Below, in pieces: positions 3,487 to 50,202 of a stretch of DNA of 54,392 nucleotides. The DNA lies in assembly GCA_037446775.1 (NCBI GenBank), contig JBBIIA010000010.1:1-54392 (forward strand), written 5' to 3'. Position numbers and translations under genes: made by a program. The stretch is from Deltaproteobacteria bacterium. Its GTDB lineage: Bacteria; Desulfobacterota; Deferrisomatia; Deferrisomatales; JACRMM01. The notes under the pieces are model-generated. The model was not told where the DNA came from and made no database searches. It worked only from the letters and a program-made list of their open reading frames with translations. Position 1 is the first letter of the stretch. Each line of letters begins with the position of its first letter.

Positions 3487-5706
3487 CTACTTGTACTGGT
3501 CCGCCGGCAGGGTGCGGATGGTGGTGTAGCGCTGGAGCTTCTGGCGGGCCCCGGCGATCAGCACCTTCACCCGTTCCGCGAGCTCCTGGGCGAAGCCGTG
3601 GTTGTGCACCGCGTTCCCCTTCACCAGGAGGATCAGGTTCTTCTCGGCGTTGTTTACGTAGTCCTGGGCGTCGTAGGTGTACTGACCCTTCTGGATGGCC
3701 GCTAGGATCGCCCGCTGCACCGCCTCGAGATCGCTCCGGAGGCTTTCGACCGGGATCGCGGCCGCCTTGGCCTTCCAGTCGGCCACCATGGGCCCGTAGC
3801 TGTCGTCGTGGCACTCCACGCAGGTGGCGGTGACCCCCTCGGTGGTGCTGGCCTTGCCGTCGGCGATCTCCACGTGGCACTCGGCGCAGGAGACCCCCTC
3901 GGCCATGACGTTGGGCGTCCCGCGGACGTCGCAGTTCTCCTCGTCGCAGGCGTTCTGCCCGTTGTACAGGTTGTGGTTCTCCACGTGGCAGTCCGCGCAA
4001 GCGACCGCGCCGGCACCCGACCCGTGGTGGCAGTCGCTGCACCCCTTGAGGAAGGTGAGGCCGTGGCGCTCCCGCGGGGTGTGGCAGTCCTGGCAGCCCA
4101 TCCCCTCGTCGTTGACGTGGATGTCATGGGGGAACTGGACGTTCCCGAAGGGCACCGGGGTGGTCTCGATGCACTCCACACAGGAGTGGCACAGCTGGGT
4201 GCACCCGGAGGGGGAGACCACGGCCGCCATCTTGTAGCCCGAAACCACCAGGCTCCGGGCCTTTTCGGCGCGCTCGCGGCAGTCCGCGAGGACCTTCAGG
4301 GCATAATCCATGTTGTGGAGGCCCCGCCCAGCGCGGACGAAGGCCAGGTTCTTCTCCGCCACGTCGAGGAGCTTGGCCGCCTCGGCGGCCCCGGCGCTCC
4401 CCCGGTTCGCGCCCACCTCGCGGCGGGCCGCCCCCAAGCCGTCCTCGGCCCGCTTGAGCTCCTCGGTCAACAGCTTCTTCCAGTGCTCGGCCATGTCGTC
4501 GTACCCGGCGCCGTGGCAGTCAGAGCACGCCTTAATCACGTCCTCGTACTTATGCCGGAAGGAGGTCTGGGTCGTGCCCCCGCTCTCCGTCAGGTAGATG
4601 TGGCAGCTGCCGCAGTCGGCGTGGGCGGCATACATCGGGCTCGGCAGGTCGGCCACCTCGGCGGCCCCGGTGCCGCGGTACATCTGGCTGATGGCGTCGT
4701 GCTTACCAAAGGAGTGGCACTTCACGCAGTTGTCGTCGTAGTGAAAGCCGCTCAAGCCCGCGGGCCGCCGGGCCTTGGCTGGCTTGTCGCCGTAGCGGGC
4801 GATGCCGGGCCGCAGGATGCCGTGCTCGATCTCGGTGTGGCAACGGAAGCACTCGACCTTGAACTGGGTGACGTGCTCCTGGTGAATGATCTCGCTGGTG
4901 AAACGGCTCAAGAGGATCCTGGGCTCGGCGTGGCACTGGACGCAGGAGTTGTCCTTGAGGTGCCCGTCGCCGAACACCACGTCGAAGTGGCACTGCCCGC
5001 ACACCACGCCCCGGTCGAGGTAGTCCTTGTGGACGAAGGGCATGTGCTCGTTGGCGTTGATGTAGATCTTCGCCTTCATCTGCACGTGGCACAGGTTGCA
5101 GTTGGCCAGGGCCGGGTCCTGCTCCTCGCCGTAAAAGTGGCAGATGAAGCAGGTGCTCTCGGTGACGGTGAGGTGGTCCCCCTGGACGATCTGGGAGTGG
5201 CAGGTGACGCACTTGAGCTTCTTGCCCCGCCGCAGTTCCCCCAGGTGGGTGGCGTGGCTGAAGGTCACCCCCTTGAAGGTGACCGGCTCGACCCCAAGGT
5301 CGGCGGTCGAGTGGCAGCCCTGCCGCAGGCAGCTCGCGTCGCTGATCTGGGTGTGGGGCCGGGAGGGGATCTTGCCGGTGATCACCTGGACGATGTGGGT
5401 CTGGGCCTTCCACTTGCCCTTCAGTTCGCCGAGAACCCCGGGCTCGAAGTGGCACGCCAGGCAGCTCACCTCGCGGTGGCTCGACTGCTCCCAGCTCTCG
5501 ATGTAGGTCTGCATGTTGTGGCAGGAGCCGCAGAACTTGGGCGAGGCGGTGGCCTTGAGGGCGACCACGGTGAGCACGATGAGGCCGAGAAACGCGACCC
5601 CGCAAAACACCAGCAGGCCCTTCCAGTGGGCCCGGGTCCCCCGCATCGCTTCCCGAGAGAAGTCCCGCACGAAGTCCCGCAGGAGTCTCCACATCTCCTT
5701 TAGCAT
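3487..5706 (-). CDS. Membrane-anchored multiheme c-type cytochrome (NapC/NirT-like N-terminus, about 16 CXXCH sites)
   Basis: Start chosen at MLKEMWRLL (ATG 5706, preceded by GGAGGAGCGAGG). Has one N-terminal TM helix followed by FCGSCH...CLACH. I counted 16 CXXCH motifs plus CLRQGCH and CTQLCH variants. The 57-aa extension in the track is probably not translated. Confidence 0.9.
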   Translation of the reverse strand: MLKEMWRLLRDFVRDFSREAMRGTRAHWKGLLVFCGVAFLGLIVLTVVALKATASPKFCGSCHNMQTYIESWEQSSHREVSCLACHFEPGVLGELKGKWKAQTHIVQVITGKIPSRPHTQISDASCLRQGCHSTADLGVEPVTFKGVTFSHATHLGELRRGKKLKCVTCHSQIVQGDHLTVTESTCFICHFYGEEQDPALANCNLCHVQMKAKIYINANEHMPFVHKDYLDRGVVCGQCHFDVVFGDGHLKDNSCVQCHAEPRILLSRFTSEIIHQEHVTQFKVECFRCHTEIEHGILRPGIARYGDKPAKARRPAGLSGFHYDDNCVKCHSFGKHDAISQMYRGTGAAEVADLPSPMYAAHADCGSCHIYLTESGGTTQTSFRHKYEDVIKACSDCHGAGYDDMAEHWKKLLTEELKRAEDGLGAARREVGANRGSAGAAEAAKLLDVAEKNLAFVRAGRGLHNMDYALKVLADCRERAEKARSLVVSGYKMAAVVSPSGCTQLCHSCVECIETTPVPFGNVQFPHDIHVNDEGMGCQDCHTPRERHGLTFLKGCSDCHHGSGAGAVACADCHVENHNLYNGQNACDEENCDVRGTPNVMAEGVSCAECHVEIADGKASTTEGVTATCVECHDDSYGPMVADWKAKAAAIPVESLRSDLEAVQRAILAAIQKGQYTYDAQDYVNNAEKNLILLVKGNAVHNHGFAQELAERVKVLIAGARQKLQRYTTIRTLPADQYK

Positions 5707-5975
5707 CCTCGCTCCTCCGCTCACTAAAAATGGAATGGCTCCAAAAAAGCACAGCCGAAGAGGGAATACCACGAAGCGCCCCAGGATTTCAAGCGCCGAG
5801 CGACCCCGGAGCAGGCCAGGGTGAGCCCCTCGAGTCAGGGGTCGCGGCGATCCCCCGAGCCCCGCTCCTGGGGCCAATTCCCCGTGTCAGTTCGGCCGCT
5901 TGACTCCCCTTTTCCCATGGTCTACGGTACTCCTCCCTGGCCCACCCCTCCCCCGCACCGGGAGTCTCGCCCATC

Positions 5976-6560
5976 GTGAGTCGCCTCATCCTCGCCTCGG
6001 CCTCCCCGCGCCGCCAGGAGCTCCTGGCGGCCCTGGGGATCCCCTTCGACCTCGTCCCGAGCCAGGCCGACGAGACCCTGCGGGAGGGCATCGGCCTGCC
6101 CCAGGCCCTCGAGGAGGTGGCCCTGCGCAAAGCGCGGGCGGTGGCGAAGGGCCAGGGCTCGGACGCCTGGGTGCTCGGCGCCGACACCGAAGTCGCCCTG
6201 GGGAACCAGATCCTGGGGAAGCCCCGGGATCCGGAAGACGCCCGGGCGATGCTGCGGGCCCTCTCGGGGCGGACCCATCGGGTGTTGACGGCGGTCGCCC
6301 TGGTGGGGGGCGACGTGGAACATCGCCTGTCCGTCGCCACCGAGGTGCGCTTTCGGGCCCTCACCGCCGGCGAGATCGCCTGGTACGCCGACCTCGCCGA
6401 GCCCTACGACAAGGCCGGGGGGTATGCGATCCAGGGGCGGGGGGCGTTCCTGGTGGCCGACCTCAAGGGCTCCTACACCAACGTGGTGGGCCTGCCGGTG
6501 GCGGAAACTGCCGCCCTCCTGGCGGAGGTCGGCTTTTGCCCCTGGGCTGGTCATGGCTGA
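5976..6560 (+). CDS. maf: Maf-like nucleoside triphosphate pyrophosphatase / septum formation protein
   Basis: MSRLILASASPRRQELL...GKP...AGGYAIQG pattern. GTG start. Confidence 0.9.
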   Translation: MSRLILASASPRRQELLAALGIPFDLVPSQADETLREGIGLPQALEEVALRKARAVAKGQGSDAWVLGADTEVALGNQILGKPRDPEDARAMLRALSGRTHRVLTAVALVGGDVEHRLSVATEVRFRALTAGEIAWYADLAEPYDKAGGYAIQGRGAFLVADLKGSYTNVVGLPVAETAALLAEVGFCPWAGHG

Positions 6561-12972: not shown

Positions 12973-12979
12973 CCCGGGG

Positions 12980-34718: not shown

Positions 34719-34788
34719 CCCTACGCCCTACTCCCTACACCCTACTCACTACTCGCCATTCGCCATTCACCATTCACCATTCCCTACA
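34719..34788. repeat. Tandem heptanucleotide array of 10 units (CCCTACG CCCTACT CCCTACA CCCTACT CACTACT CGCCATT x2 CACCATT x2 CCCTACA)
   Basis: Read directly, exact period 7. The last unit contains the TAG stop (34784..34786) of the HdrL-like gene. A TGCTCGA x2 doublet lies at 34684..34697. Confidence 0.9.
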
Positions 34789-37700
34789 TCGCCCCAATCT
34801 GCGCCAGGATCTCCTCGTTATTAAACCCGTTGAGGTCCACGGCGTTCATGCGGCAGGAGGAGGTGCAGACCCCGCAGCCCTTGCACAGCACGGTGTTGAC
34901 CACTGCGGCGAGCTCCTTGGGGTCGACGGCGATGGCGCTGTAGGGGCAGTTGATCTCGCACAGCCCGCACGCCATGCACCGCTCCTTAATCACGTACGCG
35001 GTCTTGCCCTCGGCTTCGATGTAGGGCTGGGTGAGGACCGTGGCGGCCCGCGAGACGGCGGCGTTGGCCTGGGTGACACTCTCGTCGCTCATCTTCGGCG
35101 AGTGGGCGAGGCCGCAGACGAAGACCCCGTCGGTGGCAAAATCCACCGGCCGCAGCTTCACGTGGGCCTCCAGGAAGAAGCCGTCCTGGTTGGTGGGCAC
35201 CTTGAGCATCTTGCCGATGTCGGCGTTTTCCGGGTTGGGGGCCACCCCCACGCTCAGTACCACCAGGTCGGCCCCCAGGTGCACCGGCTGGTTTAGGACC
35301 GGGTCGAAGGCCCGCACCGCCACCCCACCCCCCTGGGCAAAGACCTCGGGGCGGCGCTCCTCGTCGTAGCGCACGAACTGGATGCCGAGCTCCCGGGCCT
35401 CCCGGTAGAAGTCCTCCTTGAGGCCGTAGGTCCGCACGTCCCGGTACAGGATGGTGATCTCCCGAGCCGGGTCCGCCTTCTTCAGCCGCAGCGCGTTTTT
35501 AATCGCCTCGCTGCAGCAGTAGCGGCTGCAGTAGGGGTGCTCGGCGGTGCGGGAGCCCACGCACTGGATCATCACCACCCGCTTGATCGCCCCCAGGCGC
35601 GGGTCGTCCTCCCCCAGGGCGCCCTCGAGCTCCCGCTGGGTGACCACCCGCTCGGAGTGGCCGTACAGGTAGTCGGTGACCTCCATCTCCTGGCCGCCGG
35701 CGGCCACGATCACCACCCCGTGGTCGAACTGCCGCTCCCCCTCGGGGGTGGCGACGGTGGTCTGGTAGTTGCCGATGAAGCCGTCGATCTTGTCGGCCCG
35801 GGACCCGGTGTAGACGGTGATCCGGGGGTTCTTGGCCACCTGGTCCAAGAGCTTTCGCAGGTGCTTCTGGGTGTCGAAGCCCTCCAGGGTGAAGTGGAGG
35901 TGGCGGTAGTTGCCCCCGAGCTCGGGCTCCTTTTCGACGATGCAGGAGTCAAAGCCCTGGTCGGCGAGCGTCAGGGCCGCGGTGATGCCCGCGAGGCCGC
36001 CCCCGAGGATCAGGGCCGCCGGGGTCACCGGGAGCTGGCCGGGCTTCAAGGGCTTTAAGTACGCGGACTTGGCCACCGCCATCCGCACCAGGTCCTTGGC
36101 CTTGACGGTGGCCGCCTCGGGCTCGTGCATGTGCACCCAGGAGCCCTGGTCCCGGATGTTGGCCATCTCGAAGAGGTAGGGGTTGAGGCCCGCCTTCTCC
36201 AGGTTCTCCTGAAACAGGCCCTCGTGGGTGCGGGGCGAGCAGGAGGCGACCACCACCCGGGTGAGGTCGTGGTCCCGGATCGCCTCGGCCATCTTCACCG
36301 CCGAGTCCTGGGAGCAGGTGAAGAGGTTGTCGCAGACGAAGGAGACGTTGGGCAGGCCCTTGGCGTACTCGGCCACCCCGGGGACGTCGATCACGCCGCC
36401 GATGTTGATGCCGCAGTGGCAGACGAAGACCCCGACCCGGGGGCCAGTGCCCTGGAGGTCCTTCTCGGCGGGGAGCTCCTCCTCCGCCACCAGGGTGCCC
36501 CGCTGGCTCGCCAAGAGGCCCTGGACGCACGCCGCGGCGCCGCTCGCCTCCATGACCGTCTCGGGGATGTCCTTGGGGCCGCCAAAGGCGCCGCAGACGT
36601 AGACCCCGGGGCGGGAGGTGGCCGCCGGGTTTTCGAGCGAGGTCTGGCAAAAGCCGCTGGGGGTCAGCTCGATCCCCAGGGCCCGGGCGAGCTCGGGGGC
36701 CTCCGCCGGGGGGGTGAGGCCCACCGACAGGACCACCATCTCGAACTCCTCCTCCACCGAGGTGCCGTCCTCCTGGACGTAGGTGAGCAAGAGGTTCTTC
36801 GAGCGCTGGAGCTCCTTGACCGTGGAGGGGATCGACCGGATGTAGCGGATGCCGTAATCCTTCTTCGCCCGCTCCACGAAGCGGTCGAAGTCCTTGCCGT
36901 GGGCGCGGATGTCCATGAAGAAGATGGTCGGCTCCAGGGCCTTGGCGTGCTCCTTGCCGATGATCGCCTCCTTGGTGGCGTACATGCAGCACACCGAGGA
37001 GCACCAGGTGTTGCCGCAGCGCACGTCCCGGGAGCCGACGCACTGCAAGAAGGCGATCTTCTTCGGCTCCTTGCCGTCGGAGATCCGCTGGACGTGGCCG
37101 AAGTAGGGCCCCGAGGCCGAGAGGATCCGCTCGAACTGGACGCTCGTCACCACGTTGGGGTAGACCCCGAAGCCGTACTCCCCAAGCGCCGCCGGGTCGA
37201 AGGCCGTAAAGCCGGGGGCGGCGATCACCGCCCCCACCTGGAGCTCGACGGTCCGGGGCGCGTCGTCGTGGACCACCGCCCGGGCGATGCACGCCTCGAC
37301 GCACTGGTAGCACTCGGAGCACAAGCCGCAGGAGAGGCAGCGCTCGGCCTCGGCCCGGGCCTGGGCCTCGGTCATGGGCTGGATGACTTCGCGGAAGTGG
37401 GTGCGCCGCTCCGCGGGGGGCAGGTGGGGCATGTGGAGCCGGGGGGCCTTGGGGGTCGCGCTCACGTCCCCCGGGTCGGCCAGGTTCTCCTCCCAGTTCC
37501 GGGCCCGGCCTGCGGCCAGGTCTTCGCCCCGCAGGAAGCGGTCGATGGAGACCGCGGCCTCCTTGCCGGCGTTGACCGCCTTGACCACCGTGGCCGGGCC
37601 GGTCACCGCGTCGCCGCCGGCGAAGACGCCGGGCAGGCTGGTGGCAAAGGTCACCGGGTCGGCGTCGATCTGGTTCCACCGGTTGACCACCGCGCCGCTG

Positions 37701-39208
37701 CCGTTGGCGAGAAACGACAGGTCGCACTGCTGGCCGATGGCGGGCACCACCGCGTCCACCTCGAGCTGGAACTCCGAGCCCTTCACCGGCACCGGCCGAC
37801 GCCGCCCCGAGGCGTCGGGCTCGCCGAGCGCCATGCGGACGCACTCGATGGCCCGGACCTTGCCGTTTTCGCCGATGACCCGCACCGGCGCCACCAGAAA
37901 CTCCATGCGGACGCCCTCGTCCAGGGCCTCCTCGATCTCCTCGGGGGCGGCGGGCATCTCGGCCCGGCCGCGGCGGTACAGGCAGACCACGTCCTTGGAG
38001 CCGGTGCGCAGCGCCGTGCGCACCGCGTCCATGGCCACGTTGCCGCCCCCCACCACGGCCACCCGGTTGCCCAAAAAGACCTTCTCCCCGAGGTTGATGC
38101 GCTTGAGGTAGTCGACCCCGTGGACGACCCCCTCCAACTCCTCCCCGGGGACGTCCAGCTTGGCGCCCTTTTGGGCCCCCACCGCCACGAAGACCGCGTC
38201 GTAGTCGCGGCGCAGGTCGGCAAAGGCCACGTCGGTGCCCACCGCGGTGTTGAGGCGGATGTCCACCCCCAGGTCGCGGATCGCCTGGATCTCGGCGCCC
38301 AAGACGTCCCGGGGCAGCCGGTACTCGGGGATCCCCGCCCACATCCAGCCCCCCGCCACCGGCAGGGCCTCGAAGACGGTGACGTCGTAGCCCTCGGCGG
38401 CCAAAAAGTACGCCGCGGTGAGCCCGCCGGGGCCGGCCCCGACGATGGCGACCTTCTTGCCCTGCTTCGCCTTCACCTCGGGCACGTAGCGGGTCTCGGC
38501 CTTCAAGTCCAGGTCGGCCACGAAGCGCTTGAGGTGCATGATGTCGATGGGCTCGTCCACCTCGGCCCGCTTGCAGGCGGCCTCGCAGGGGTGGTTGCAG
38601 ACCCGGCCGCACACCGAGGGGAAGGGGTTCTCCTGCTTGATCAGCTTCAAAGCCTCGGCGTACTTGCCCTGGCCGATCAGGGCTACGTACCCCTGGACGC
38701 TGATGTGGGTGGGGCAGGCGGCCTTGCACGGCGAGGTGCCCCGCTTCTCGATGGCGAAGGCGGCGGGGATGGCCTGGGGGAAGTGGCGGTACGCCGCGGT
38801 GCGGGTGGCCAGGCCGCCGTTGAACTCGTCGGGCCGGGGCACCGGGCACACCTTGGCGCAGTCGCCGCAGCCCGTGCACTTGTCCAGGTCGACGAAGCGG
38901 GGGGCCTGGGCGAGCCGCACGGTGAAGCGGCCGGCCGTCCCCTCCACCGCTTCCACGGTGGCCTGGGTAAGGATCTCCACGTTGGGGTGGCGCCCCACCT
39001 CCACGAGCTTCGGCGACAGGATGCACGCCGAGCAGTCGTTGGTGGGGAAGGTCTTGTCCAGCTGGGCCATGACCCCGCCGATCGAGATCCCCTTCTCCAC
39101 CAGGTAGACCTTCATCCCGGAGTTGGCGAGGTCCAAGGACGCCTGGATGCCGGCGATCCCCGCCCCCACCACCATGACTGCGCCTACGTTTGAGCCGTTC
39201 GTCGACAC
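34784..39208 (-). CDS. HdrL-like giant flavoprotein: HdrA module with an inserted GltD/NfnB-like NAD(P)H module, followed by a second HdrA-like module and a 2x[4Fe-4S] ferredoxin tail
   Basis: Uninterrupted 1509-codon ORF. Start chosen at GTG 39208 (AAGGAAG SD 6 nt upstream), giving 1474 aa. Four dinucleotide-binding motifs (VVGAGIAGI, IVGAGPGGL, VVGGGNVAMD, ILGGGLAGI). HdrA signatures: DKTFPTNDCSACIL, QCVGSRD...CSSVCCMY, GVFVCHCGINIGG, QCVGSRT...CSRYCCS. GltD-like signature: GRVCNHPCEAAC. Confidence 0.9.
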   Translation of the reverse strand: MSTNGSNVGAVMVVGAGIAGIQASLDLANSGMKVYLVEKGISIGGVMAQLDKTFPTNDCSACILSPKLVEVGRHPNVEILTQATVEAVEGTAGRFTVRLAQAPRFVDLDKCTGCGDCAKVCPVPRPDEFNGGLATRTAAYRHFPQAIPAAFAIEKRGTSPCKAACPTHISVQGYVALIGQGKYAEALKLIKQENPFPSVCGRVCNHPCEAACKRAEVDEPIDIMHLKRFVADLDLKAETRYVPEVKAKQGKKVAIVGAGPGGLTAAYFLAAEGYDVTVFEALPVAGGWMWAGIPEYRLPRDVLGAEIQAIRDLGVDIRLNTAVGTDVAFADLRRDYDAVFVAVGAQKGAKLDVPGEELEGVVHGVDYLKRINLGEKVFLGNRVAVVGGGNVAMDAVRTALRTGSKDVVCLYRRGRAEMPAAPEEIEEALDEGVRMEFLVAPVRVIGENGKVRAIECVRMALGEPDASGRRRPVPVKGSEFQLEVDAVVPAIGQQCDLSFLANGSGAVVNRWNQIDADPVTFATSLPGVFAGGDAVTGPATVVKAVNAGKEAAVSIDRFLRGEDLAAGRARNWEENLADPGDVSATPKAPRLHMPHLPPAERRTHFREVIQPMTEAQARAEAERCLSCGLCSECYQCVEACIARAVVHDDAPRTVELQVGAVIAAPGFTAFDPAALGEYGFGVYPNVVTSVQFERILSASGPYFGHVQRISDGKEPKKIAFLQCVGSRDVRCGNTWCSSVCCMYATKEAIIGKEHAKALEPTIFFMDIRAHGKDFDRFVERAKKDYGIRYIRSIPSTVKELQRSKNLLLTYVQEDGTSVEEEFEMVVLSVGLTPPAEAPELARALGIELTPSGFCQTSLENPAATSRPGVYVCGAFGGPKDIPETVMEASGAAACVQGLLASQRGTLVAEEELPAEKDLQGTGPRVGVFVCHCGINIGGVIDVPGVAEYAKGLPNVSFVCDNLFTCSQDSAVKMAEAIRDHDLTRVVVASCSPRTHEGLFQENLEKAGLNPYLFEMANIRDQGSWVHMHEPEAATVKAKDLVRMAVAKSAYLKPLKPGQLPVTPAALILGGGLAGITAALTLADQGFDSCIVEKEPELGGNYRHLHFTLEGFDTQKHLRKLLDQVAKNPRITVYTGSRADKIDGFIGNYQTTVATPEGERQFDHGVVIVAAGGQEMEVTDYLYGHSERVVTQRELEGALGEDDPRLGAIKRVVMIQCVGSRTAEHPYCSRYCCSEAIKNALRLKKADPAREITILYRDVRTYGLKEDFYREARELGIQFVRYDEERRPEVFAQGGGVAVRAFDPVLNQPVHLGADLVVLSVGVAPNPENADIGKMLKVPTNQDGFFLEAHVKLRPVDFATDGVFVCGLAHSPKMSDESVTQANAAVSRAATVLTQPYIEAEGKTAYVIKERCMACGLCEINCPYSAIAVDPKELAAVVNTVLCKGCGVCTSSCRMNAVDLNGFNNEEILAQIGAM

Positions 39209-39359
39209 GGGTTCTTCCTTCGGACTCGGCGTGAAGTCGCTACCGTTCGGGTCTTCGCCCGTCGTGCACGGAGGCACAAGGGCGGGCAGGCCCTGCCTTG
39301 TACTAAACGTCACGGGCCGGAGTCAAGGCCCGCGACGGCGGTCGCCCCCGGTATCCGGT

Positions 39360-42352: not shown

Positions 42353-43431
42353 CCCGATCGCCCCTCGCGACCTCCCTCTGGCTCGCCCTCGGGGGGCTCG
42401 GCGCCCTGTGGCTGGTGGTGCGCCTGGACGCGGTGGTGACGCCGCTCCTCGTCGCCTGGTTCGTCGCCTACGCCCTAGACCCCCTGGTGGACCGGCTGGA
42501 GACCTGGCGGGTGCCCCGGGCGGCCGGAGTGGTCCTGGTCCTGCTGGGGCTCGGGCTCCTCGCGGCGGCCGCCGCCGTGCTGGTGGCCCCGGCCCTGGCC
42601 GAGCAGGTGCGGGGCGCCGCCCGGGCCCTGCCCGGCTACGTCCGCTCGGCCCAGGAGACCCTCCTGCCCCGGGCCGAGGCGTGGCTCGGGCGGCCGCTCT
42701 CCGCCGAGCTCGCGAGCCGCGCCGACGAAGCCGCCCGCCAGCTCCAGGAGGCCCTCCCCGCGGTGGTCTCCTGGGCCGTCGGCGCCGCCCAGGCGGTCTT
42801 CGCGGGCGCCTGGGGCCTGGTGGCGGCCCTTCTCGGGTTCGCCCTCATCCCGGTCTTCGCCGCCTACCTTTTGCTGGACTTCAACGGCCTGGGGCAGCGG
42901 CTGGTGGAGCTCGCCCCGGCCGCTTATCGAGAAGGCGCCCAGCGGTTCTTGGAGCGCGCCGACGGGGTGCTCGGGGCCTTCGTCCGCGGGCAACTGACGG
43001 TGTGCGCCGCCCTGGCGCTCCTGTACTCCCTGGGGCTCACCCTGGTGGGCATCGACATGCCCTGGGTGGTCGGCATCCTGTCGGGGGCGCTCTTCCTGGT
43101 GCCGTACCTGGGGACCGTGGTAGGCATCGTCTTGGGCAGCGTGCTGGCGCTCCTCAAGTTCCACGACCTGGCCCACCTCCTGGGGGTGTGGGGGGTCTTT
43201 GCCGTCGCCCAGCTGCTGGAGGGCTTCCTGCTCACCCCCCGGGTGGTCGGCGACCGGGTGGGCCTCCACCCCCTGGCGGTGATCGTCGCCATCCTCGCGG
43301 GCGGCGAGCTCTTCGGCTTCGTCGGCATCCTCTTGGCGGTGCCCGGCGCGGCGGTGCTGCGGGTAGCGCTGGCCGAGGGACTAGAGGCGTACCGAGGGAC
43401 GGCGGCGTACCGGGGGCCGGGGAGCCCCTAA
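42349..43431 (+). CDS. AI-2E family transporter (PerM/YhhT-like permease)
   Basis: 360 aa with multiple TM segments and a C-terminal GLHPLAVIVAILAGGELFGFVGILLAVP motif. The GTG start overlaps the upstream stop (GTGA). Confidence 0.85.
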   Translation: MTRSPLATSLWLALGGLGALWLVVRLDAVVTPLLVAWFVAYALDPLVDRLETWRVPRAAGVVLVLLGLGLLAAAAAVLVAPALAEQVRGAARALPGYVRSAQETLLPRAEAWLGRPLSAELASRADEAARQLQEALPAVVSWAVGAAQAVFAGAWGLVAALLGFALIPVFAAYLLLDFNGLGQRLVELAPAAYREGAQRFLERADGVLGAFVRGQLTVCAALALLYSLGLTLVGIDMPWVVGILSGALFLVPYLGTVVGIVLGSVLALLKFHDLAHLLGVWGVFAVAQLLEGFLLTPRVVGDRVGLHPLAVIVAILAGGELFGFVGILLAVPGAAVLRVALAEGLEAYRGTAAYRGPGSP

Positions 43432-43467
43432 AGCCGCCGTCCACCTCGTCCACCCCGCCAACCACCC

Positions 43468-44841
43468 CTAGTCCAACCGCGGCACCGCACCCGGGGGGCA
43501 GTCGACCCGGGCCCGGGCTTCCTTGAGCTTGAAGCCGGGGCTCCGGGAGCGGGTGTGGCACCCCCGGCACCCCTCGGCCGCGGCGGCCAGGGAGCGGGGC
43601 ATGGGGGCGGCGGGGTGGAGGCTCCCGGGCCCGTGGCACGCCTCGCACTGGACGCCCCCCAGGTCGACGGTCGCCCCCTCGGCCCAGCCTCCCCACTCCC
43701 CGAACCCGGTCACGTGGCACTCCAGGCACTCGGCCCGCCGCCGGTCCCCCGGCGGCAGCCGCTCCAGGGCCCGGGCGTGAGGCTGGGTCCGCCACTGCCG
43801 GTGGGCGTCCGAATGGCACCGCGCGCACTCCCGGGCCGACACGTACAGGGCCCCGCCCTGGCGGACGTTGACCGCCAGTTCCTCTTCGTCCGAGACGATC
43901 CCGTGGGGCACCCGCAGCTTGGCGACGGCGGCAAAGCGGTAGTAGCGGTCGACCAGCCGGCGGACGGCGGGCTCGTCGGGATACTCGGGCTTCATGGCCA
44001 CGAGCCCATGGGTCAGGGCAGCCCGCCCCCCGGGCAAGCCGGTGACGGTGACGTGGCCGAGGTAGCGCCCCAGGTGGGCGACGCTGCCCACCAGCGCCGA
44101 ACCGATCCGCCACGGCAGGCGGACCTTGTCGTCGGGGTCCCCGGCGACCAGGAGGTCCACCTCGTCCACGGTCTTGGCGGCCAACCGAAGCTTCTTGGGG
44201 TCCACCGCCGACAGGACCACCACCAGGTCACACCCGGCGGCCTTCAGCTCCTGGGCGTACCGCTTGATCGCCCCAAAGGTGGGTTCGAGGCGGAAGTCGT
44301 CGCCGAACTCCCGGACCTGCAGGGTCGAGTCGAGGATCCCCACCAGCCCCACCCGAAACCCTCCGGCCCCCACGATCACCCACGGGCGGAACACCGGGTC
44401 CCCCGAGTTGCGGTCGACGAGGTTGGCACACAGGAAGGGAAATCGGGCCCTCGCCTCCAGGGCACGCAAGAACGGCAAACCGGCGGCGAAATCGTAGGGC
44501 CCCAGTCCCATCGCGGCGACCCCGATCTCGTTGTAGGCGTCGATGATGGTCTCCGCCTTGAACCGGAGCTGCTCGGCTTCGATGGGCCGGAGCTGGCTGC
44601 GACCGAAGAGCGCGTTGCCCCCGTCGAGCGCTAGAACCGCCGCGCCCCGCCGCCGGGCATCCTTGACGAAGTGAGCCTTCTTGGCGAGACCGCCAAGTGG
44701 GTTCTGGGCTCACCCGCAGATGCCGACGGTCCCTCGCACCTCCGAGGTGTACACCAGGTGCACGGCCGCGGTCTCCGTCGGCACGACGGCGACCGCTTCG
44801 GAGATCCCGAGGAGCAGCAGGATCAGCAACAGCCACGCCAT
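43468..44841 (-). CDS. Candidate selenoprotein: secreted degenerate 5'-nucleotidase/metallophosphoesterase-like domain fused to a tetraheme cytochrome c; in-frame TGA (44710..44712) read as Sec
   Basis: The ATG 44841 ORF (MAWLLLILLLLGISEAVA signal peptide) continues in frame through one TGA into track ORF 43468..44511. The junction reads ...VRGTVGICG-[TGA]-AQNPLGGLAKKAHF.... The C-terminus has 4 CXXCH sites (CARCH, CLECH, CEACH, CRGCH). The paralog at 44989..46398 has a TGA at the same aligned position. Confidence 0.7.
44680..44697 (-). other. SECIS-like hairpin downstream of the in-frame TGA of the minus-strand paralog
   Basis: CTTGGCG-GTCT-CGCCAAG, a perfect 7-bp stem starting 13 nt after the TGA. 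GGTCT occupies +19..+23. Confidence 0.5.
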
Positions 44842-44899
44842 GGATTTCCTCTCCCGGAGCCAGGTTTTCCTCCTCGCTCCACCCCACGGGTCAGGACCC

Positions 44900-44929
44900 T
44901 TGAACCCTTTATCACAGGTCTGTTATGGT
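44900..44929 (+). promoter_or_regulatory. Possible sigma70-type promoter for the plus-strand paralog (TTGAAC-18 nt-TATGGT)
   Basis: Hexamer matches only. It lies in the 147-bp divergent spacer and is followed by the palindrome TCCCGCG-GT-CGCGGGA (44940..44955), GAGGAG and ATG 44989. Confidence 0.3.
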
Positions 44930-44988
44930 CAGCACGTTGTCCCGCGGTCGCGGGAGAACGCCTATCGCCTTCCCGCCGAGGAGTCAGC

Positions 44989-46398
44989 ATGCGCTCGATC
45001 GCCATGGCCACCCTACTCGGACTCGCCCTCATCGGCCAGCCCACCCGAGCGACGACAACGCCGCCCGCCGGCTTCACCCTGCTGTACTCCGCGGACGAAC
45101 GGGGCGAGATCGAGCCCTGCGGGTGACAGGACAACCCGCGTGGCGGTCTGGCCAAGCGAGCGACGTACATCCAGGGCGTTCGCGCCGAAGGGCGACCCCA
45201 CCTGGTGGTGTCGGCCGGTAACCTGTTGTTTCGCCGGGAGCGGCTGAAGGCGGAGCACCGGGAGGCGGATCGCCTCAAGGCGGACCTGCTGCTCCGGGGC
45301 TACCACCTCACGGGGATCGACGCCCTCAACGTCGGCGCCTACGACCTCTCCCTGGGCGTCGGCTACCTTCGGGCCAAGCAAGCCGAGCACCGCCTCCCGC
45401 TGCTCTCGGCGAACCTCCGCGACGAGAAGGGGAACCTCTGGTTTCGGCCCCACGTCCTCAAGGAGGTCGGGGGCGTCAAGGTGGGCATCCTCGGCCTCAC
45501 CGATCCCCGACTGAAGGTGGACAAGATCCCCGGGGGAGAGCAGGTGCGGGTTCAGCCCCCCCGGGAGAGCGTGGATGCCGCCGTGCGCGAGCTCAAGGCC
45601 CAGGGCGCCACCTACCTCGTGCTCCTGACCGATATGACCAGCCGATCCCTGCGCCGACTCGCCGCCAAGGGGCTCCCCGTAGACGCCATCATCGCCAGCG
45701 ACGAGCGCAACCAGATCGCCTCCCCCTTCTTCCTCGGTCCTACCTACGTGACCCACCTGGACCGGGGAGGCAAGTGCATCGGCCGCCTCGAGGTGGCCCT
45801 GCTCAAGCCCGGGCAGGAGCCACCGCCGGGCACCCTGCGCACCACCGGGCGCCCCGGAGGGGAAGTGGCCTACCGAAACACCTTCGTCCAACTGCGGCTC
45901 TCGATCCCCGACGACCCGATCCTCGGCCCGCTGGTAGCGGCGGTCGCCCAGCGGGTGGCCGAACTCCAGGAGGAGTCGAGCAAGAAGCTCCAGCCGGTGG
46001 CCGACTCCGACTGCGGCAAGCGGTATCTCGGCGCCGGCGCCTGCGTCTCCTGCCACTCGGACCGCCACCGGGGCTGGTCGGCCACCAGCCACGCCCTGGC
46101 GTACACCACCTTGGTCAAGCGCAAGAAGCAGTTCGACGAGGACTGCCTCGCCTGCCACACCTTGGGTTTCGAGTGTGAAGGGGGGTTCTTCGACCCGGAG
46201 AACCTGGGCGGCTTCGCCCACGTCCAGTGCGAATCCTGCCACGGTCCGGGGCAGGTCCACGTGGAAGCCAAGGGCAAGGCCCCCATGCCCACCCGTCGCC
46301 CCTCGGCCGCCGTGTGTCGCCGTTGCCACACCGAGGAGAAGAGCCCGGATCTAGACCTCGCCCGGGCCCGCCTGACGATCTGCCGCCCCGCTCCCTAG
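44989..46398 (+). CDS. Candidate selenoprotein: secreted degenerate 5'-nucleotidase/metallophosphoesterase-like domain fused to a tetraheme cytochrome c; in-frame TGA (45124..45126) read as Sec
   Basis: ATG 44989 follows GAGGAG. Signal peptide MRSIAMATLLGLALIG. Same frame as track ORF 45205..46398. The junction reads ...ADERGEIEPCG-[TGA]-QDNPRGGLAKRATYI.... The C-terminus has 4 CXXCH sites (CVSCH, CLACH, CESCH, CRRCH). Confidence 0.7.
45137..45158 (+). other. SECIS-like hairpin downstream of the in-frame TGA of the plus-strand paralog
   Basis: CGCGTGGC-GGTCTG-GCCAAGCG, an 8-position stem with one mismatch that starts 11 nt after the TGA. GGTCT occupies +19..+23, the same offset as in the other paralog. 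Confidence 0.45.
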
Positions 46399-46401
46399 GG
46401 A

Positions 46402-46500
46402 GGCTCAGACCGTCGAGGTACGAGAGGGGGGGGCTTCTTGCAGGATGAACAGGATTTCTCGGGTCTGCCTGCCGCTGGCATCCTGAACACCCTGCGAGCA
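46402..46500 (+). repeat. Intergenic repeat element, copy 5 (CTCAGACCGTCGAGGTACGAGAGG module plus degenerate arms)
   Basis: GGCTCAGACCGTCGAGGTACGAGAGGGGGGGGCTTCTTGCAGGATGAACAGGAT...GGCATCCTGAACACCCTG. Starts 4 nt after the TAG stop at 46398. Confidence 0.85.
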
Positions 46501-46532
46501 TCGAGGCCCCGGCGTCGCCGCCGGGGCCTCGA
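46501..46532. terminator. Strong GC hairpin between convergent genes (possible bidirectional terminator)
   Basis: TCGAGGCCCCGGCG-TCGC-CGCCGGGGCCTCGA, a perfect 14-bp stem. It lies 5 nt from the stop of the minus-strand CbcL-like gene. There is no clear U-tract, so the terminator function is inferred. Confidence 0.55.
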
Positions 46533-46536
46533 CTCT

Positions 46537-48372
46537 TCAGTGGGCCAAAAACCCCCAGACGATCAAGCCGATGCACAGGAGGCCGATCCCCAGGGCGGTG
46601 AACCCGAAGAGGTGCCCCAGGAGGTCGGCGAGGGGGTGGGTCGGTTTGGCGCGCATCGACTCCAGGGTGCCCTTGGCGCGGAGCCGCTCCACCCAGGAGG
46701 CCCGTTCCTCCCACAGCTCGTACTTCGGCATCCGTCCCTGGAAGATCACCATGTCCATGGGGAACTTACCGGGCCGGAAGTGGGTGTTGAAGAAGTGCAC
46801 CGTGAAGATGAAGCCGGTCGCCAAGAGGGCCTCGTCGCTGTGGACGATGATGGCGACGTTGAAGATCCACCCGGGGAGGACCGCGCCAAACCACTCGGGG
46901 AACCACAGCAGAAGCCCCGAGCCGCCGATGGCGAACATCCCCCAGAAGACCGCCAGGAAGTCGAACTTCTCCCAGTACGTCCAGCGGTCGAAGGTCGGCT
47001 CCTTCCCGCGGCCGAAGAACCACCGGATCATCGCTCCGATGTCCGTCACGTCCCGCCGGTTGGGGAAGAGGGAGTCGGGCCCAAAGAGCTTCTGCCAGAA
47101 GCTCTCTCCGGTCTTCTTGAACAGCAAGTAGTAACAGACGTAGGCGAGGCAGGCACCGAAGTACACGAAGGTGACCACGGCGCACACCCGGTGCCAATAC
47201 CCCGCCATGTGCGGTCCGCCCAAAAGCTTCATGATCGCCGGCGCCCAGGGGGCGTCGTAAAACTTGAGGGGCAGGCCGGTGATGACCAGGCCCAGGAAGC
47301 TCACCACCATCAGAAGGTGCTGCATCCGATCGAACCCGTTGAACCGCCGGTAGGGCCGCAGGGGCTCGTCCACGTGGGGGTGGGCGTAGTGCCCATCCAG
47401 AAGCTTCTGGCAGCGGGCCCAGTAGGCCTTGCGCCACCACAAGAAGGTGTGGAGCCAGAAGACCGCGAAGACCGCCACCAGGAGGCTCGTCATGGCCACG
47501 AAGGTGTAGTACAGGACGGGGTAGTTTTCCTTGTCCCGGTGGTCGGCGTGGGACAGGAACTGGGCGAAGAGCGGCGTCGCGTGGGGGTGGCAGACGGCGC
47601 AGGTCGCCACCACCCGGTCCGGGTGAATGGTCGACTCGGGATCGTCGGCCCGGCGCACCGCGTGGGCGCTGTGGCAGTCGGCACACCCCGCGGCCAGGGC
47701 CGAGCCGAGGGCCTCGACCTTGCCGTGGTAGCTCTCCTCGTAGGTCCTGGAAGCCACCACAAGAACGTCGTTGCGCGCCATCATGGCGGCGTCGGCGTGG
47801 CAGCGCTGGCAGGTCTCGGTGTGGAACTCCCGGCCGGCGTGGGTGTTCTTGTCGGGCACCGGCTCGATGCGGTGCATGCCGTGGCAGTCCGCACAGGACG
47901 CCGAGTCGTTGTTCCCCGCCGCCACCGCCACCCCGTGGACGCTAGCCAGGTAGGCATCGCCGTCGTGGCAGCCGAGGCACTTGTCCACCACGCTCTGCTT
48001 GTTGCCGTCCCACTTCTGGATGGTGTGCACGTCCGAGTGGCAGTCCGCGCACTTGATGTCGTTGAGCATGTGGGCCGAGGCGAAGTGGTCACGCCCCTGG
48101 TTGGGATGGCAGCGGTGGCAGGTGTCCACCTTGTCCTGGGTCCGGGACCCGCAAGTCTCGTGGTCGGCGATGTCGACCACGTCGTAGTGGCAGCTGTTGC
48201 AGGCGTGGCGGCCGTGGGCAGAAGCGGCGAACGCCGCGTAGTCCATCTCCTCGTGGCACTCGATGCACCGACTGTCGTCGATGGTCGCCCACGCCACCGG
48301 CACGCCCCCCAAGAGCAGCAACGCACCCAGGACCCAACTCCCCAATCGTCCCTCGTCCAAACGGATACGCAT
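46537..48372 (-). CDS. CbcL-like fusion: periplasmic nine-heme cytochrome c domain plus integral-membrane b-type cytochrome (HydC/FdnI-like) domain
   Basis: 611 aa with a signal/anchor sequence. Nine CXXCH sites (CIECH, CNSCH, CHRCH, CADCH, CLGCH, CADCH, CQRCH, CADCH, CAVCH). These are followed by 4-5 TM helices with conserved His (e.g. RMQHLLMV, YWHRVCAV, IIVHSDEAL, FTVHFFNTH). Confidence 0.88.
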   Translation of the reverse strand: MRIRLDEGRLGSWVLGALLLLGGVPVAWATIDDSRCIECHEEMDYAAFAASAHGRHACNSCHYDVVDIADHETCGSRTQDKVDTCHRCHPNQGRDHFASAHMLNDIKCADCHSDVHTIQKWDGNKQSVVDKCLGCHDGDAYLASVHGVAVAAGNNDSASCADCHGMHRIEPVPDKNTHAGREFHTETCQRCHADAAMMARNDVLVVASRTYEESYHGKVEALGSALAAGCADCHSAHAVRRADDPESTIHPDRVVATCAVCHPHATPLFAQFLSHADHRDKENYPVLYYTFVAMTSLLVAVFAVFWLHTFLWWRKAYWARCQKLLDGHYAHPHVDEPLRPYRRFNGFDRMQHLLMVVSFLGLVITGLPLKFYDAPWAPAIMKLLGGPHMAGYWHRVCAVVTFVYFGACLAYVCYYLLFKKTGESFWQKLFGPDSLFPNRRDVTDIGAMIRWFFGRGKEPTFDRWTYWEKFDFLAVFWGMFAIGGSGLLLWFPEWFGAVLPGWIFNVAIIVHSDEALLATGFIFTVHFFNTHFRPGKFPMDMVIFQGRMPKYELWEERASWVERLRAKGTLESMRAKPTHPLADLLGHLFGFTALGIGLLCIGLIVWGFLAH

Positions 48373-48852
48373 GGCAGCACTCCCTCAATCAAGAAGAAGT
48401 CAAATGTACCCCCTGGTTTCCTACTCGGACGGTCTCGTTTCGGTGCCACCTCCTCCCCGGAGCCGCACTGCCCCACTTCGTGAATAAGCGACTTTTCACA
48501 AGCCTAACCCCGCCGGGGGCTCGCCCGCCACGGATCATAGGAGGGTTCCCCGCTCGGATCAAGGCAATTGGCGTGCGGCAGCGCGGGTCGGCCCCGTCGA
48601 GGGGCATCCCGGGGGCCGGGCGAGGGACCGGGAAAGCCCGGTGTGACGCCCCGCGCCCGAGCCTTGACGGCGTTCGTCGCGAGGGGCTACGGTGGAGCCC
48701 CGGGGCAGGGACCCCGGCGAGGGGCGGGCCTGGGTGGCGGGGACGACCACGGCCCCCGAAGGCGTTTCCCCCCTTCACCGTTCCCGCCGGGACGGCGGGT
48801 TGCCCTCGGCCCCGGTCCGGCCACCGCTGCCGGGGCCCGGTAAGGAGACGGC

Positions 48853-50202
48853 ATGGACGACCGGGACGGCCACTACCGCAAGAAGTACCTCGACCTCCTC
48901 TCCGAGCTCGAGCGCAAAGAACGGGACTGGGCCGCGCTCGACGAGCGGTTGCGGCGCATCCTGGCCCACCTCATCCTCCTCGCCGGCACCCCCGGAGCGG
49001 CGGATTTCGCCTCGGACCTCGGCGCCATGCGGGACGCCCTCAAGGGGGGGCTCGACCTTGCCACCCTCGAGGCACGGCTCGAGGACCTAAAGACCCGGGT
49101 CCTCCGCGAGCGCCGCTGGGCCGACGGAGCCCCCGACTTCCCGCCCATCCACCAGATCCTGATCCACCTGGTGGAGCGGCTCCCCCTGCCCCCGGAGTTG
49201 AGCGAAGCGGTTCTAGCAGTGGTGGAGGGCCTGGAGCCGGGCATCCCCCCCGACGGACTCCCGGACGCCATCGAGGCGGTCACCTCCCTGGTGACCCGGG
49301 TTCGCGTCCGGATGCAGGAAGAGAAGCGGGAGCTCGAGGGCCTACTCCTCGAGATCACCAGCCGCCTCAAGGAACTCGGCGACTCCCTGGACGACACCTG
49401 CCAAGAGGTCCGCGCCGGCTCCGCCGCCCATCGGGATCTGGACGAAGCGCTCACCGCCCAGGTGCGAGGGCTCGCCGCCACCACGGAAGGCGCGAAGGAT
49501 CTCGAGTCCCTGCGATCGGTCGTGCGCAGTGCCCTGGCGTCGATCCAGGACCGGCTAGACGCCCGCCAACACGGCGGGGGTAACCGCAGCGAGAAGCTCC
49601 TGGCCGAGATCGAGCGGCTTCGGGGCACGGTGTCGACCCTGGAGGCCGAGGTCTCGGAGCACCGGGAGAATACCCGCCGCGCCCGCGAGGCGAGCCTGCG
49701 CGACCCCTTGACCGGCTGCTTCAACCGCCTCGCCTACGACGAGCGCATGCGCACCGAAGCAGCGCGGTGGCACCGGTACCGCGCGCCCCTGTCCCTGGCG
49801 CTTCTGGACCTGGACCGTTTCAAGGCCATCAACGACACCTACGGGCACCGGGCCGGCGATCAGGTCCTCCGGACGGTGGCCCAGGTGGCGATGAGCCAGG
49901 TACGCCAGGTGGACTTCCTCACCCGCCACGGCGGGGAAGAGTTCGCCATCCTCCTGCCCGAGACCGGCCTGGAGGCCGCCCTGGCCGTGGCCGAAAAGGT
50001 TCGCCGCGCGGTGGCGGGCTTCCGCTTCCACTCCCGGGGTCGGCGGATCCCCATCTCCCTCTCCTGCGGCGTCGCCTCCTTTCGGGAAGGAGACACCGCC
50101 GACACCGTCTTCGAGCGGGCGGACCGCGCCTTGTACCGCGCCAAGGCCGGGGGCCGCAATCGCTGCGTCACCGAGGCCGACGACGCCGAAGGAGGCCGCT
50201 GA
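48853..50202 (+). CDS. Diguanylate cyclase (GGDEF domain) with a long coiled-coil N-terminal region
   Basis: ATG 48853 follows AAGGAG. C-terminal DPLTGCFNR...DLDRFKAINDTYGH..GD...RHGGEEFAILLP (GGEEF active site) and RADRALYRAKAGGRN. Confidence 0.9.
   Translation: MDDRDGHYRKKYLDLLSELERKERDWAALDERLRRILAHLILLAGTPGAADFASDLGAMRDALKGGLDLATLEARLEDLKTRVLRERRWADGAPDFPPIHQILIHLVERLPLPPELSEAVLAVVEGLEPGIPPDGLPDAIEAVTSLVTRVRVRMQEEKRELEGLLLEITSRLKELGDSLDDTCQEVRAGSAAHRDLDEALTAQVRGLAATTEGAKDLESLRSVVRSALASIQDRLDARQHGGGNRSEKLLAEIERLRGTVSTLEAEVSEHRENTRRAREASLRDPLTGCFNRLAYDERMRTEAARWHRYRAPLSLALLDLDRFKAINDTYGHRAGDQVLRTVAQVAMSQVRQVDFLTRHGGEEFAILLPETGLEAALAVAEKVRRAVAGFRFHSRGRRIPISLSCGVASFREGDTADTVFERADRALYRAKAGGRNRCVTEADDAEGGR

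Follow-up and report, generated by a model that had tools for sequence, protein, structure and literature searches.

We describe here a gene locus in a stretch of 54,392 nucleotides (hereafter the window; contig JBBIIA010000010.1, positions 1 to 54,392 of the forward strand, in the assembly GCA_037446775.1 of a Deltaproteobacteria bacterium), where two diverged genes for UshA-like, heme-containing candidate selenoproteins lie beside a gene for a CbcL-family cytochrome. Judging from related loci, the locus is probably part of a conserved three-component, quinol-linked periplasmic electron-transfer cluster of some Thermodesulfobacteriota; the components would be the secreted UshA-like selenoproteins (two diverged paralogs here), the CbcL-family cytochrome, and a 16-heme NrfH-like cytochrome, the gene of which appears to have been relocated to 3487-5706. 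This proposal starts from what we observed of the gene identities, the correspondence between selenocysteine (Sec) and Cys, the hairpins resembling a selenocysteine insertion sequence (SECIS), the fold, the loss of metal ligands, and the clustering of the genes through rearrangements. A preliminary description of the window had called two candidate selenoproteins with four hemes each and a nine-heme plus b-type fusion resembling CbcL, arranged as a divergent paralog pair followed by the convergent fusion gene, and both the gene calls and the layout proved correct. The 16-heme cytochrome was overlooked in that description and is the most constant partner of the selenoprotein in relatives. The features on which the proposal is built are as follows.

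43468..44841, minus strand: paralog 1, UshA-like (seleno)protein of NF041198, with a signal peptide, a degenerate 5'-nucleotidase-fold domain carrying ICG-Sec, and a C-terminal c554-type tetraheme domain
44710..44712, minus strand: TGA read as selenocysteine in paralog 1, aligning with Cys of full-length homologs
44680..44697, minus strand: SECIS-like hairpin of paralog 1, CUUGGCG-GUCU-CGCCAAG, beginning 15 nucleotides past the UGA
44989..46398, plus strand: paralog 2, UshA-like (seleno)protein of NF041198, with a PCG-Sec motif and a tetraheme C-terminus; of the clades, its own shows the most consistent link to the cytochromes
45124..45126, plus strand: TGA read as selenocysteine in paralog 2, aligning with Cys in homologs
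45137..45158, plus strand: SECIS-like hairpin of paralog 2, CGC-G-UGGC / GGUCUG / GCCA-A-GCG (RNAfold), beginning 13 nucleotides past the UGA
46537..48372, minus strand: CbcL-family inner-membrane cytochrome, a fusion of a periplasmic part with nine c-type hemes and a probable b-type (FdnI/HydC-like) membrane domain
3487..5706, minus strand: 16-heme membrane-anchored cytochrome with an NrfH/NapC-like N-terminus and 16 CXXCH motifs, about 40 kb from the selenoprotein genes

The open reading frames (ORFs) of paralogs 1 and 2 span 457 and 469 codons, respectively, and each is interrupted by a single in-frame TGA; the two proteins are about 34% identical, and their genes are transcribed divergently from a 147-bp spacer. 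When Sec was read as Cys, paralog 1 scored 304.4 bits and paralog 2 scored 346.1 bits against NF041198, both of which exceed the curated cut-off of 275. The sequence on either side of each TGA is conserved in translation (GTVGICG-TGA-AQNPLGGLAKK in paralog 1 and GEIEPCG-TGA-QDNPRGGLAKR in paralog 2). Also, each paralog starts with a signal-peptide-like segment encoded upstream of the TGA and contains exactly four CXXCH motifs near the C-terminus. In paralog 1, the segment upstream of the TGA (44710-44922) carries the signature of coding sequence in the G+C content at third codon positions (GC3); the corresponding segment of paralog 2 is too short for GC3 scoring.

Relatives of the two genes were collected in a first pass covering the first 80 family loci (loci are denoted by L numbers and proteins by P numbers), and wider sampling was added later. 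The PCG[U/C] motif was found in 68 instances in the first 80 loci, with TGA in 20 and Cys in 48 at the aligned position, and the pooled loci provided 101 distinct Sec-form and 107 distinct Cys-form sequences downstream of the codon. When the folding of the 48 nucleotides past the codon was compared with that of shuffled sequences, the mean z was -1.41 for the Sec forms, which are thus the more stably folded, and -0.26 for the Cys forms (Mann-Whitney p = 2e-12). A hairpin occurs at the same place in most of the Sec-form relatives, where its sequence differs by clade and the pairing is kept, as exemplified by CUGGCCC-GGC-GGGCCAG and ACAGCUC-GGA-GGGCUGU. In E. coli fdhF, the SECIS element has GGUCU at the stem-loop junction, and GGUCU is similarly located in the hairpins of both window genes; in paralog 1, it spans the junction between a 7-bp stem and the GUCU loop. 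Orthologs of paralog 2 (hereafter clade A), which are 42-49% identical to it and present in at least 15 loci, keep its hairpin. A single-sequence scan gave no relatives of paralog 1, and an alignment including the gene in L311 then gave those in L312 and L313; these three form the paralog-1-type clade, which is 48-55% identical to paralog 1 and has the same GICG-TGA motif. A further clade (clade B), with the motif NDVMGEVEPCGUFRNPLGG, is 27-33% identical to paralog 2 and comes from metagenome-assembled genomes (MAGs) labelled Syntrophaceae and from those of other Thermodesulfobacteriota.

Both paralogs are therefore well-supported candidate selenoproteins as far as sequence can tell, and on this point the preliminary description stands; the family itself is not new and has been known since 2008. 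It was listed, without a function, as "COG0737, UshA-like, CxU" in the 2008 selenoproteome of the Global Ocean Sampling survey, where its 76 sequences place it among the more abundant selenoprotein families of marine metagenomes (PMC2398784), and again without a function as NF041198 in the table of a 2026 review (PMC13188914). In public gene calls, furthermore, each selenoprotein gene is divided into an ORF of 43-45 amino acids and a "multiheme c-type cytochrome" of 347-397 amino acids (L001, L221, and L222), and the window has the corresponding small upstream ORFs at 44712-44841 and 44989-45123. Most public entries for close relatives are N-terminally truncated, with about 85% query coverage, and a RefSeq-style entry of Deferrisoma (P0049) is likewise truncated, because gene callers ended at the TGA; as a result of this division at the Sec codon, the family is under-annotated in MAGs. 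Taken at face value, these automatic calls would mean that the TGA codons are true stops and that the window has small upstream ORFs followed by N-terminally truncated multiheme cytochrome genes (397 and 347 amino acids). Such truncated products would, however, have no signal peptide, yet c-type hemes are attached in the periplasm; the stretch upstream of the TGA encodes the signal peptide and the conserved family motif, with coding GC3 in paralog 1, and the read-through sequences exceed the NF041198 cut-off. Given also the Cys at the TGA position in 48 of the 68 first motif instances, the 107 distinct Cys forms overall, and the conserved hairpin past the TGA, we regard true stops as very improbable.

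The gene for the CbcL-like protein is convergent with paralog 2 at a gap of 138 bp. The protein has 611 amino acids, with nine CXXCH motifs in an N-terminal periplasmic domain that start at residues 36, 58, 85, 108, 132, 160, 188, 230, and 258, and its hydrophobic C-terminal half weakly matches TIGR01583 (FdnI-gamma, E = 2e-5) and DUF4405; PF01292 is recorded for many of its homologs, which number in the thousands. Its identity to the proteins of Geotalea and Trichlorobacter (P0235 and P0239) is 52-53% over 95% of the length, and tblastn against Geobacteraceae-labelled loci, among them Geomonas, gave 47-53%. The nine CXXCH motifs and six His residues of the membrane domain are invariant in an alignment including the Geobacteraceae homologs. 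In the Geobacter sulfurreducens protein GSU0274, V205 and F525 are functionally important according to a preprint. The equivalents of these residues are conserved: the Geobacteraceae homologs have V205 and IFTVHFF at around residue 525, and V203, F521, F523, F527, and F528 of the window protein are invariant. The product of 46537-48372 is hence a CbcL-family protein by sequence, the comparison having been made with Geobacteraceae homologs and not with GSU0274 itself, and the full-length identity with all nine heme motifs kept bears out the likeness to CbcL proposed previously. In Geobacter, CbcL carries a dihaem b domain of six helices together with nine c-type hemes, is needed for acceptors at or below -0.1 V, and represents an experimentally supported menaquinol-oxidising route to the periplasm (PMC9129911, PMC5322298). 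The need for menaquinol oxidation with low-potential acceptors is established for G. sulfurreducens only.

The 16-heme protein is encoded in the ORF 3487-5877 on the minus strand with a likely start at 5706, which gives a membrane-anchored product of 739 amino acids. It matches the NrfH model TIGR03153 with 43.8 bits (E = 3e-11), below the cut-off of 134, and the PDB structure of NrfH (2J7A) over residues 32-104 (E = 4.5e-5); PF03264 is recorded for its orthologs, weakly in one case. The likeness is confined to the N-terminus, and the protein does not qualify as a member of the NrfH/NapC/NirT family; no curated family matched it above its cut-off. In the orthologs, which are 37-65% identical, all 16 CXXCH motifs are kept.

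Among the first 80 family loci, a CbcL homolog was adjacent to the selenoprotein gene in two close relatives only (L005 and L007), and a homolog of the window ORF 3487-5877 adjoined the selenoprotein gene in L005, L006, L007, and L011. With the wider sampling, 14 of the 15 clade A loci had the 16-heme gene at a distance of no more than 2.5 kb from that of the selenoprotein. A CbcL homolog was within 10 kb in nine of these 15; L005, L007, and L167 have it adjacent and convergent, an arrangement like that of the window, and in six further loci it was 2.4-7.9 kb from the selenoprotein gene. In clade B, the CbcL homolog was adjacent (180-371 bp) and convergent in all ten informative loci, and the 16-heme gene was 0.26-7.2 kb away in nine of the ten. 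In the paralog-1-type clade, L311 has both CbcL and 16-heme-like genes, co-directional with the selenoprotein gene: namely, the order is maf, selenoprotein, CbcL, 16-heme-like, def, and fmt, and the three cluster genes share a strand.

The family members in cytochrome contexts are all Sec forms. Of the 188 unique members of the family, 26 of the 90 Sec forms and one of the 98 Cys forms had a further ORF with four or more CXXCH motifs within 5 kb, and in 23 of these 27 members the neighbor was the 9-heme and/or the 16-heme protein. Outside the three linked clades, another multiheme gene was present within 5 kb in only four of about 165 members. When the search was reversed and started from the 80 closest CbcL loci, a selenoprotein gene was found in 13 and a 16-heme gene in 14; among these 80, the loci labelled Geobacter, Geobacteraceae, Geomonas, Trichlorobacter, and Desulfuromonas had neither. 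The cytochrome link is thus confined to three Sec clades, from Deferrisomatales, Syntrophaceae-like, and other Thermodesulfobacteriota MAGs. Conserved synteny had been named in the preliminary description as a check on its proposal; it does recur in these three Sec clades and is not family-wide, and most CbcL genes, including those of Geobacteraceae, are unlinked. In a rough neighbor-joining tree with no support values, clades A and B were apart, with cytochrome-free Sec clades between them.

The internal order of the genes differs among L005, L311, and L223, and so do the flanks. In L007, the selenoprotein-CbcL pair is located between the 16-heme gene and maf, which are direct neighbors in the window (3487-6560); in the window, the pair is 40 kb off, between genes for PerM and a GGDEF protein, and would have moved over this distance as a unit. 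No flanking direct or inverted repeats were found as mobile-element signatures around the translocated pair. CbcL and the selenoprotein gene are separated by atp genes and an aminotransferase gene in L223 and L225, where the 16-heme gene is on the other side, by nuo. The selenoprotein gene seems to have been duplicated in the cluster more than once, since L246 has two tandem UshA-like genes between the 16-heme gene and CbcL (L246:7100-9550) in addition to the pair in the window. A class III aminotransferase gene, which is near the cluster in ten loci, was considered as a fourth member and rejected, as neither its position nor its strand is constant and its presence resembles housekeeping synteny.

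Some further observations on these loci can be recorded here. The junction of the 16-heme gene, maf, and def-fmt (5707-6560 in the window, compared with L007, L311, and L312) is a rearrangement hot spot, with four arrangements among Deferrisomatales-type MAGs, and L312 joins the 5.9-12.9 kb and 39.4-43.4 kb segments of the window through the paralog-1-type gene. Also, a 3.4-kb contig binned as "Thermoplasmata archaeon" (L166, QMSR01000145.1) has a clade A gene with 44% identity to paralog 2; in motif and SECIS, this gene is nearly identical to its counterparts in bacterial MAGs of Thermodesulfobacteriota, and the archaeal assignment is likely a binning error. None of the RNA runs holds the clade B locus L235.

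The fold of the UshA-like proteins was read from a full-length Cys homolog, P0057, in an AlphaFold2 model based on a 76-sequence alignment (predicted local distance difference test score 85.8, predicted template modelling score 0.82). The N-terminal region of about 285 residues matches E. coli 5'-nucleotidase (1HP1 and 1USH) and Thermus thermophilus SoxB (2WDC) with a Foldseek probability of 1.0 and a root-mean-square deviation of 3-3.6 Å, and the E-values of the profile matches of this domain to the 5'-nucleotidase/SoxB superfamily are 1e-20 to 1e-27. In the profile alignment to the 5'-nucleotidase 2Z1A, NDTHAH of the latter corresponds to variable residues, DAGD to daGn, GNHE to GaYD, SHLG to anld, and GGHSH to gssk. 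The dinuclear-metal motifs (DxH, GD, GNH(E/D), the motif-IV His, and GH) are all replaced, with changes such as GD to GN, GNHE to GAYD, and GGH to GSS, and by this sequence criterion the UshA-like paralogs are not functional calcineurin-like metallophosphoesterases. Hydrolytic phosphoesterase or SoxB chemistry is unexpected because the metal ligands are replaced and the C-terminal substrate domain is swapped for a tetraheme domain. SoxB-like sulfur chemistry was considered on account of matches to TIGR04486, but these were rejected as evidence: the likeness extends to the 5'-nucleotidase superfamily in general, and the metal site has been lost.

The Cys-Gly-Sec triad is on the loop directly past the former first metal motif. 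In 5'-nucleotidases, the site of this motif is turned toward the cleft that separates the N-terminal from the C-terminal domain. The nucleotide-binding C-terminal domain is replaced here by a c554-type tetraheme module (PF13435; PDB 1BVB, E = 1e-19), the PF13435 match having E = 1e-10 to 1e-12 for the paralogs and E = 1e-12 for paralog 1, and the Sec would face the heme domain. In the family alignment, only two His residues are invariant besides those of CXXCH, so that at least two hemes have no conserved distal His; these hemes could be open-coordinate or otherwise ligated. The NF041198 model also spans the heme domain, and the clade B proteins and the Cys form P0057 match it end to end; the window paralogs are without the coiled-coil insert of about 60-70 amino acids found in the model and in clade B and hence match the model in two stretches. 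No thioredoxin fold was found in the UshA-like paralogs by domain search or in the structure comparison of P0057. As a side observation, other proteins (P0089, P0097, P0110, P0112, P0115, and P0119) are fusions of the c554-type tetraheme module with TlpA/AhpC/thioredoxin-fold domains, which suggests that this module may commonly feed thiol-based redox centers.

Put together, a possible route for electrons can be outlined. Both membrane cytochromes would exchange electrons between the menaquinone pool and the periplasm, and the tetraheme domain of the selenoprotein might dock on one or both of them and relay electrons to or from the Cys-Gly-Sec center at the interface of the two domains. By analogy with NrfH feeding NrfA, redox catalysis on a periplasmic substrate would then take place at the Cys-Gly-Sec center. 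In this scheme, we infer the physical transfer of electrons from protein to protein, the direction of this transfer, the catalysis by Sec, and the substrate. A chalcogen, metalloid, or sulfur compound had been put forward as the substrate in the preliminary description, and no result here supports any particular one. The module with the selenoprotein as the catalytic partner is plausible, and we regard it as a worthwhile lead and not as a demonstrated pathway. More tentatively, the three-gene set could possibly be an unrecognised respiratory branch of Deferrisomatales-/Syntrophales-type Thermodesulfobacteriota, in which a four-heme-fed Sec center on a metal-less phosphoesterase scaffold would be the terminal catalytic site.

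Several observations weigh against such a module. L312 has a paralog-1-type gene with no CbcL or 16-heme gene within 5-8 kb, and in several clade A loci housekeeping genes (atpBE, an aminotransferase gene, and that of a K+ transporter) intervene between the genes for CbcL and the selenoprotein. In cultured Deferrisoma, a clade A selenoprotein gene adjoins the 16-heme gene (L226), and CbcL is unlinked, near the ortholog of the GGDEF gene. The three genes are on opposite strands in nearly all loci, with L311 as the sole co-directional case, and therefore belong to separate transcription units, which excludes co-transcription in those loci. In L232, the CbcL and 16-heme genes are kept and the selenoprotein gene between them is a decayed C-terminal remnant (...GVQCEACHGPGKGHP...CRNCHTKDQ..., 11800-13250), a case of gene loss, so the cytochromes can persist without the selenoprotein; the selenoprotein slot is occupied by a different ORF, which we take, by eye, to be DUF1684-like. 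Most of the family, mainly Cys forms from Planctomycetota, Verrucomicrobiota, Acidobacteriota, Myxococcota, and Scalindua, is found in unrelated contexts, and its basic chemistry is thus independent of these cytochromes. In Planctomycetota and Verrucomicrobiota, for example, the Cys forms are in a conserved cluster with a MoxR-type AAA ATPase, DUF58, VWA/BatA-like membrane proteins, a DUF4159-like protein, and a large thioredoxin-like HEAT-repeat protein (the MoxR/DUF58/VWA context was taken from L019, L023, L034, L036, L045, L055, L059, L062-L064, and L074-L076). Also, there was no match to a sel family among the annotated genes in the scanned part of the window, and the sole tRNA call was a doubtful tRNA-Pro.

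The grouping might accordingly reflect gene order that was simply inherited, in a region prone to rearrangement and containing many respiratory genes; there would then be no direct functional coupling, and the selenoproteins would use other, unlinked redox partners. The opposite strands without an operon, the def-fmt/maf region visibly shuffled between relatives, the presence of atp, nuo, and housekeeping genes as neighbors, and the missing association in Deferrisoma (for CbcL), in L312, and in most of the family would all suit this explanation. Nonetheless, the same 9- and 16-CXXCH partners recur beside selenoprotein clades that are only 27-34% identical, in varied flanks, orders, and orientations, which suggests more than shared ancestry because the genes stay together while the flanks and the internal order change. 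When the cluster was split, furthermore, the selenoprotein genes stayed with CbcL (in the window) or with the 16-heme gene (in Deferrisoma), and other multiheme genes are scarce near members outside the linked clades (four of about 165 members, as noted above); mere inheritance of gene order is unlikely in our estimate. We consider it quite unlikely, too, that the proteins are heme-fed periplasmic thiol/selenol redox proteins (e.g., a disulfide, peroxide, or persulfide reductase) that guard the envelope or multiheme cytochromes and are not respiratory terminal enzymes, with electrons coming from whichever quinol-oxidising cytochrome is available. The CxU motif is of a type that occurs in thiol-oxidoreductase-type selenoproteins (PMC2398784), and such a role would be in keeping with the fusion of the c554-type module to TlpA/AhpC/thioredoxin-fold domains elsewhere, the thioredoxin-like HEAT-repeat protein adjoining the Planctomycetota Cys forms in the MoxR/VWA clusters, the commonness of the family in organisms without known metal or sulfur respiration, and the persistence of the L232 cytochromes without the selenoprotein. 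A housekeeping role, on the other hand, leaves unexplained why only three Sec clades are tied to two quinol-linked cytochromes, and the UshA-like paralogs have no thioredoxin fold; the electron path would be the same as in the quinol-linked module, with a difference in the end use only.

The preliminary description held that its quinol-to-periplasm route had not been described. The selenoprotein family has been, as mentioned above, and the link to CbcL is apparently undescribed; in the literature searched, whose coverage is incomplete, no paper describing the association of CbcL, NF041198, and the 16-heme protein was found. A repeated, rearrangement-resistant link to two quinol-linked cytochromes provides a testable context, i.e., periplasmic respiratory electron transfer, for a family without an assigned function, and the cytochrome link suggests a respiratory role for the family. 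If this is true, it would be the first function for a selenoprotein family known from sequence alone since 2008, and CbcL-type quinol oxidases would gain a dedicated enzymatic partner beyond soluble carrier cytochromes. Work on CbcL has almost exclusively concerned its part in Geobacter as a route to extracellular acceptors, and its homologs outside Geobacteraceae may serve a dedicated periplasmic enzyme. With public annotations dividing the genes at the Sec codon, the family is systematically missed in MAG-based metabolic reconstructions.

Compared with known systems, the paralogs share with NF041198 the (P/I)CG-Sec motif, the Sec/Cys pairing, the degenerate 5'-nucleotidase-like N-domain, and the tetraheme C-domain, whereas they have no coiled-coil insert, and the Pro of PCGU is an Ile in paralog 1. 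CbcL (GSU0274) of G. sulfurreducens has the nine c-type hemes seen in the window protein and a b-type membrane domain to which the C-terminal half of the latter probably corresponds, but the CbcL genes of Geobacteraceae/Desulfuromonadales are without a UshA-like or 16-heme neighbor, and the partner proposed there is PpcA (PMC9129911). With NrfH-NrfA and the CymA/NapC/TorC types, the logic is shared that a membrane multiheme quinol dehydrogenase is encoded beside a soluble periplasmic multiheme catalytic protein. The candidate quinol dehydrogenase in the window, however, has 16 hemes instead of 4-5 and a sub-cut-off NrfH score; a second quinol-linked cytochrome (CbcL) is in the cluster, and the genes are not in one operon. 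Unlike NrfA, which has a CXXCK catalytic heme, the window selenoproteins are without CXXCK and instead have Cys-Gly-Sec on a phosphoesterase scaffold. The N-terminal domain has the same fold as UshA/SoxB, but the dinuclear-metal ligands are absent and a tetraheme domain is located at the C-terminus. The tetraheme module is like cytochrome c554 of Nitrosomonas europaea (PF13435), except that it is part of a larger enzyme-like protein and at least two of its hemes have no conserved distal His.

The remaining features around the selenoprotein and CbcL-like genes are the following.

44842..44988, no strand: divergent intergenic spacer of 147 bp between the paralogs (sequence)
46503..46531, no strand: GC-rich inverted repeat GAGGCCCCGGCG...CGCCGGGGCCTC in the gap where paralog 2 and the CbcL-like gene converge, read by eye
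48373..48852, no strand: spacer of 480 bp between the divergent CbcL-like and GGDEF genes, with one sigma-70-like match on the minus strand at 48562-48534
48853..50202, plus strand: DGC-coil + GGDEF diguanylate cyclase (PF00990, E = 3e-43; PF20975)

The GGDEF domain encoded at 48853-50202 exceeds the Pfam cut-off (PF00990, 147.7 bits) and scores 157 bits against TIGR00254. The spacer that the fusion gene shares with this GGDEF gene, noted previously as 464 bp, is real and has a length of 480 bp. In the Deferrisoma-type loci L309 (3189-4517) and L310 (2926-4266), GGDEF orthologs with 55-56% identity are located 3.5 kb from CbcL and separated from it by cobD, an aminotransferase gene, and a hypothetical gene. 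The GGDEF and CbcL-like genes of the window are direct divergent neighbors. No GGDEF ortholog was present in the three-gene loci. The GGDEF neighbor is hence genuine but only loosely conserved, and its membership in the module appears doubtful.

The inverted repeat at 46503..46531 is a candidate bidirectional terminator, though without a T run. It was not called in a scan for consensus terminators, and a sigma-70-like consensus scan of the 44842..44988 spacer gave no match; such consensus scans of promoters and terminators are of little use in DNA with 70% G+C. In an Rfam scan of the region 43000-49000 (E <= 1), the sole result was a chance match to "sar" (22.5 bits against a gathering score of 43). 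The window DNA, with about 70% G+C, is chromosomal, and its sequence was matched in three DNA runs only, from one subsurface metagenome, the source being a Deferrisomatales-type bacterium. The surroundings are of housekeeping character, with genes for a PerM-type permease, methyltransferases, and an EF-G-family GTPase together with birA, coaX, topA, dprA, priA, and efp. The tRNA-Pro(GGG) of 92 nucleotides called by ARAGORN at 37751-37842 on the minus strand is probably a false positive; it is inside a strongly coding ORF of 1512 amino acids (34784-39322, GC3 0.96), whose product is a multi-domain flavoprotein/ferredoxin oxidoreductase with Pyr_redox_2, Fer4_20, and FAD_binding_2 domains.

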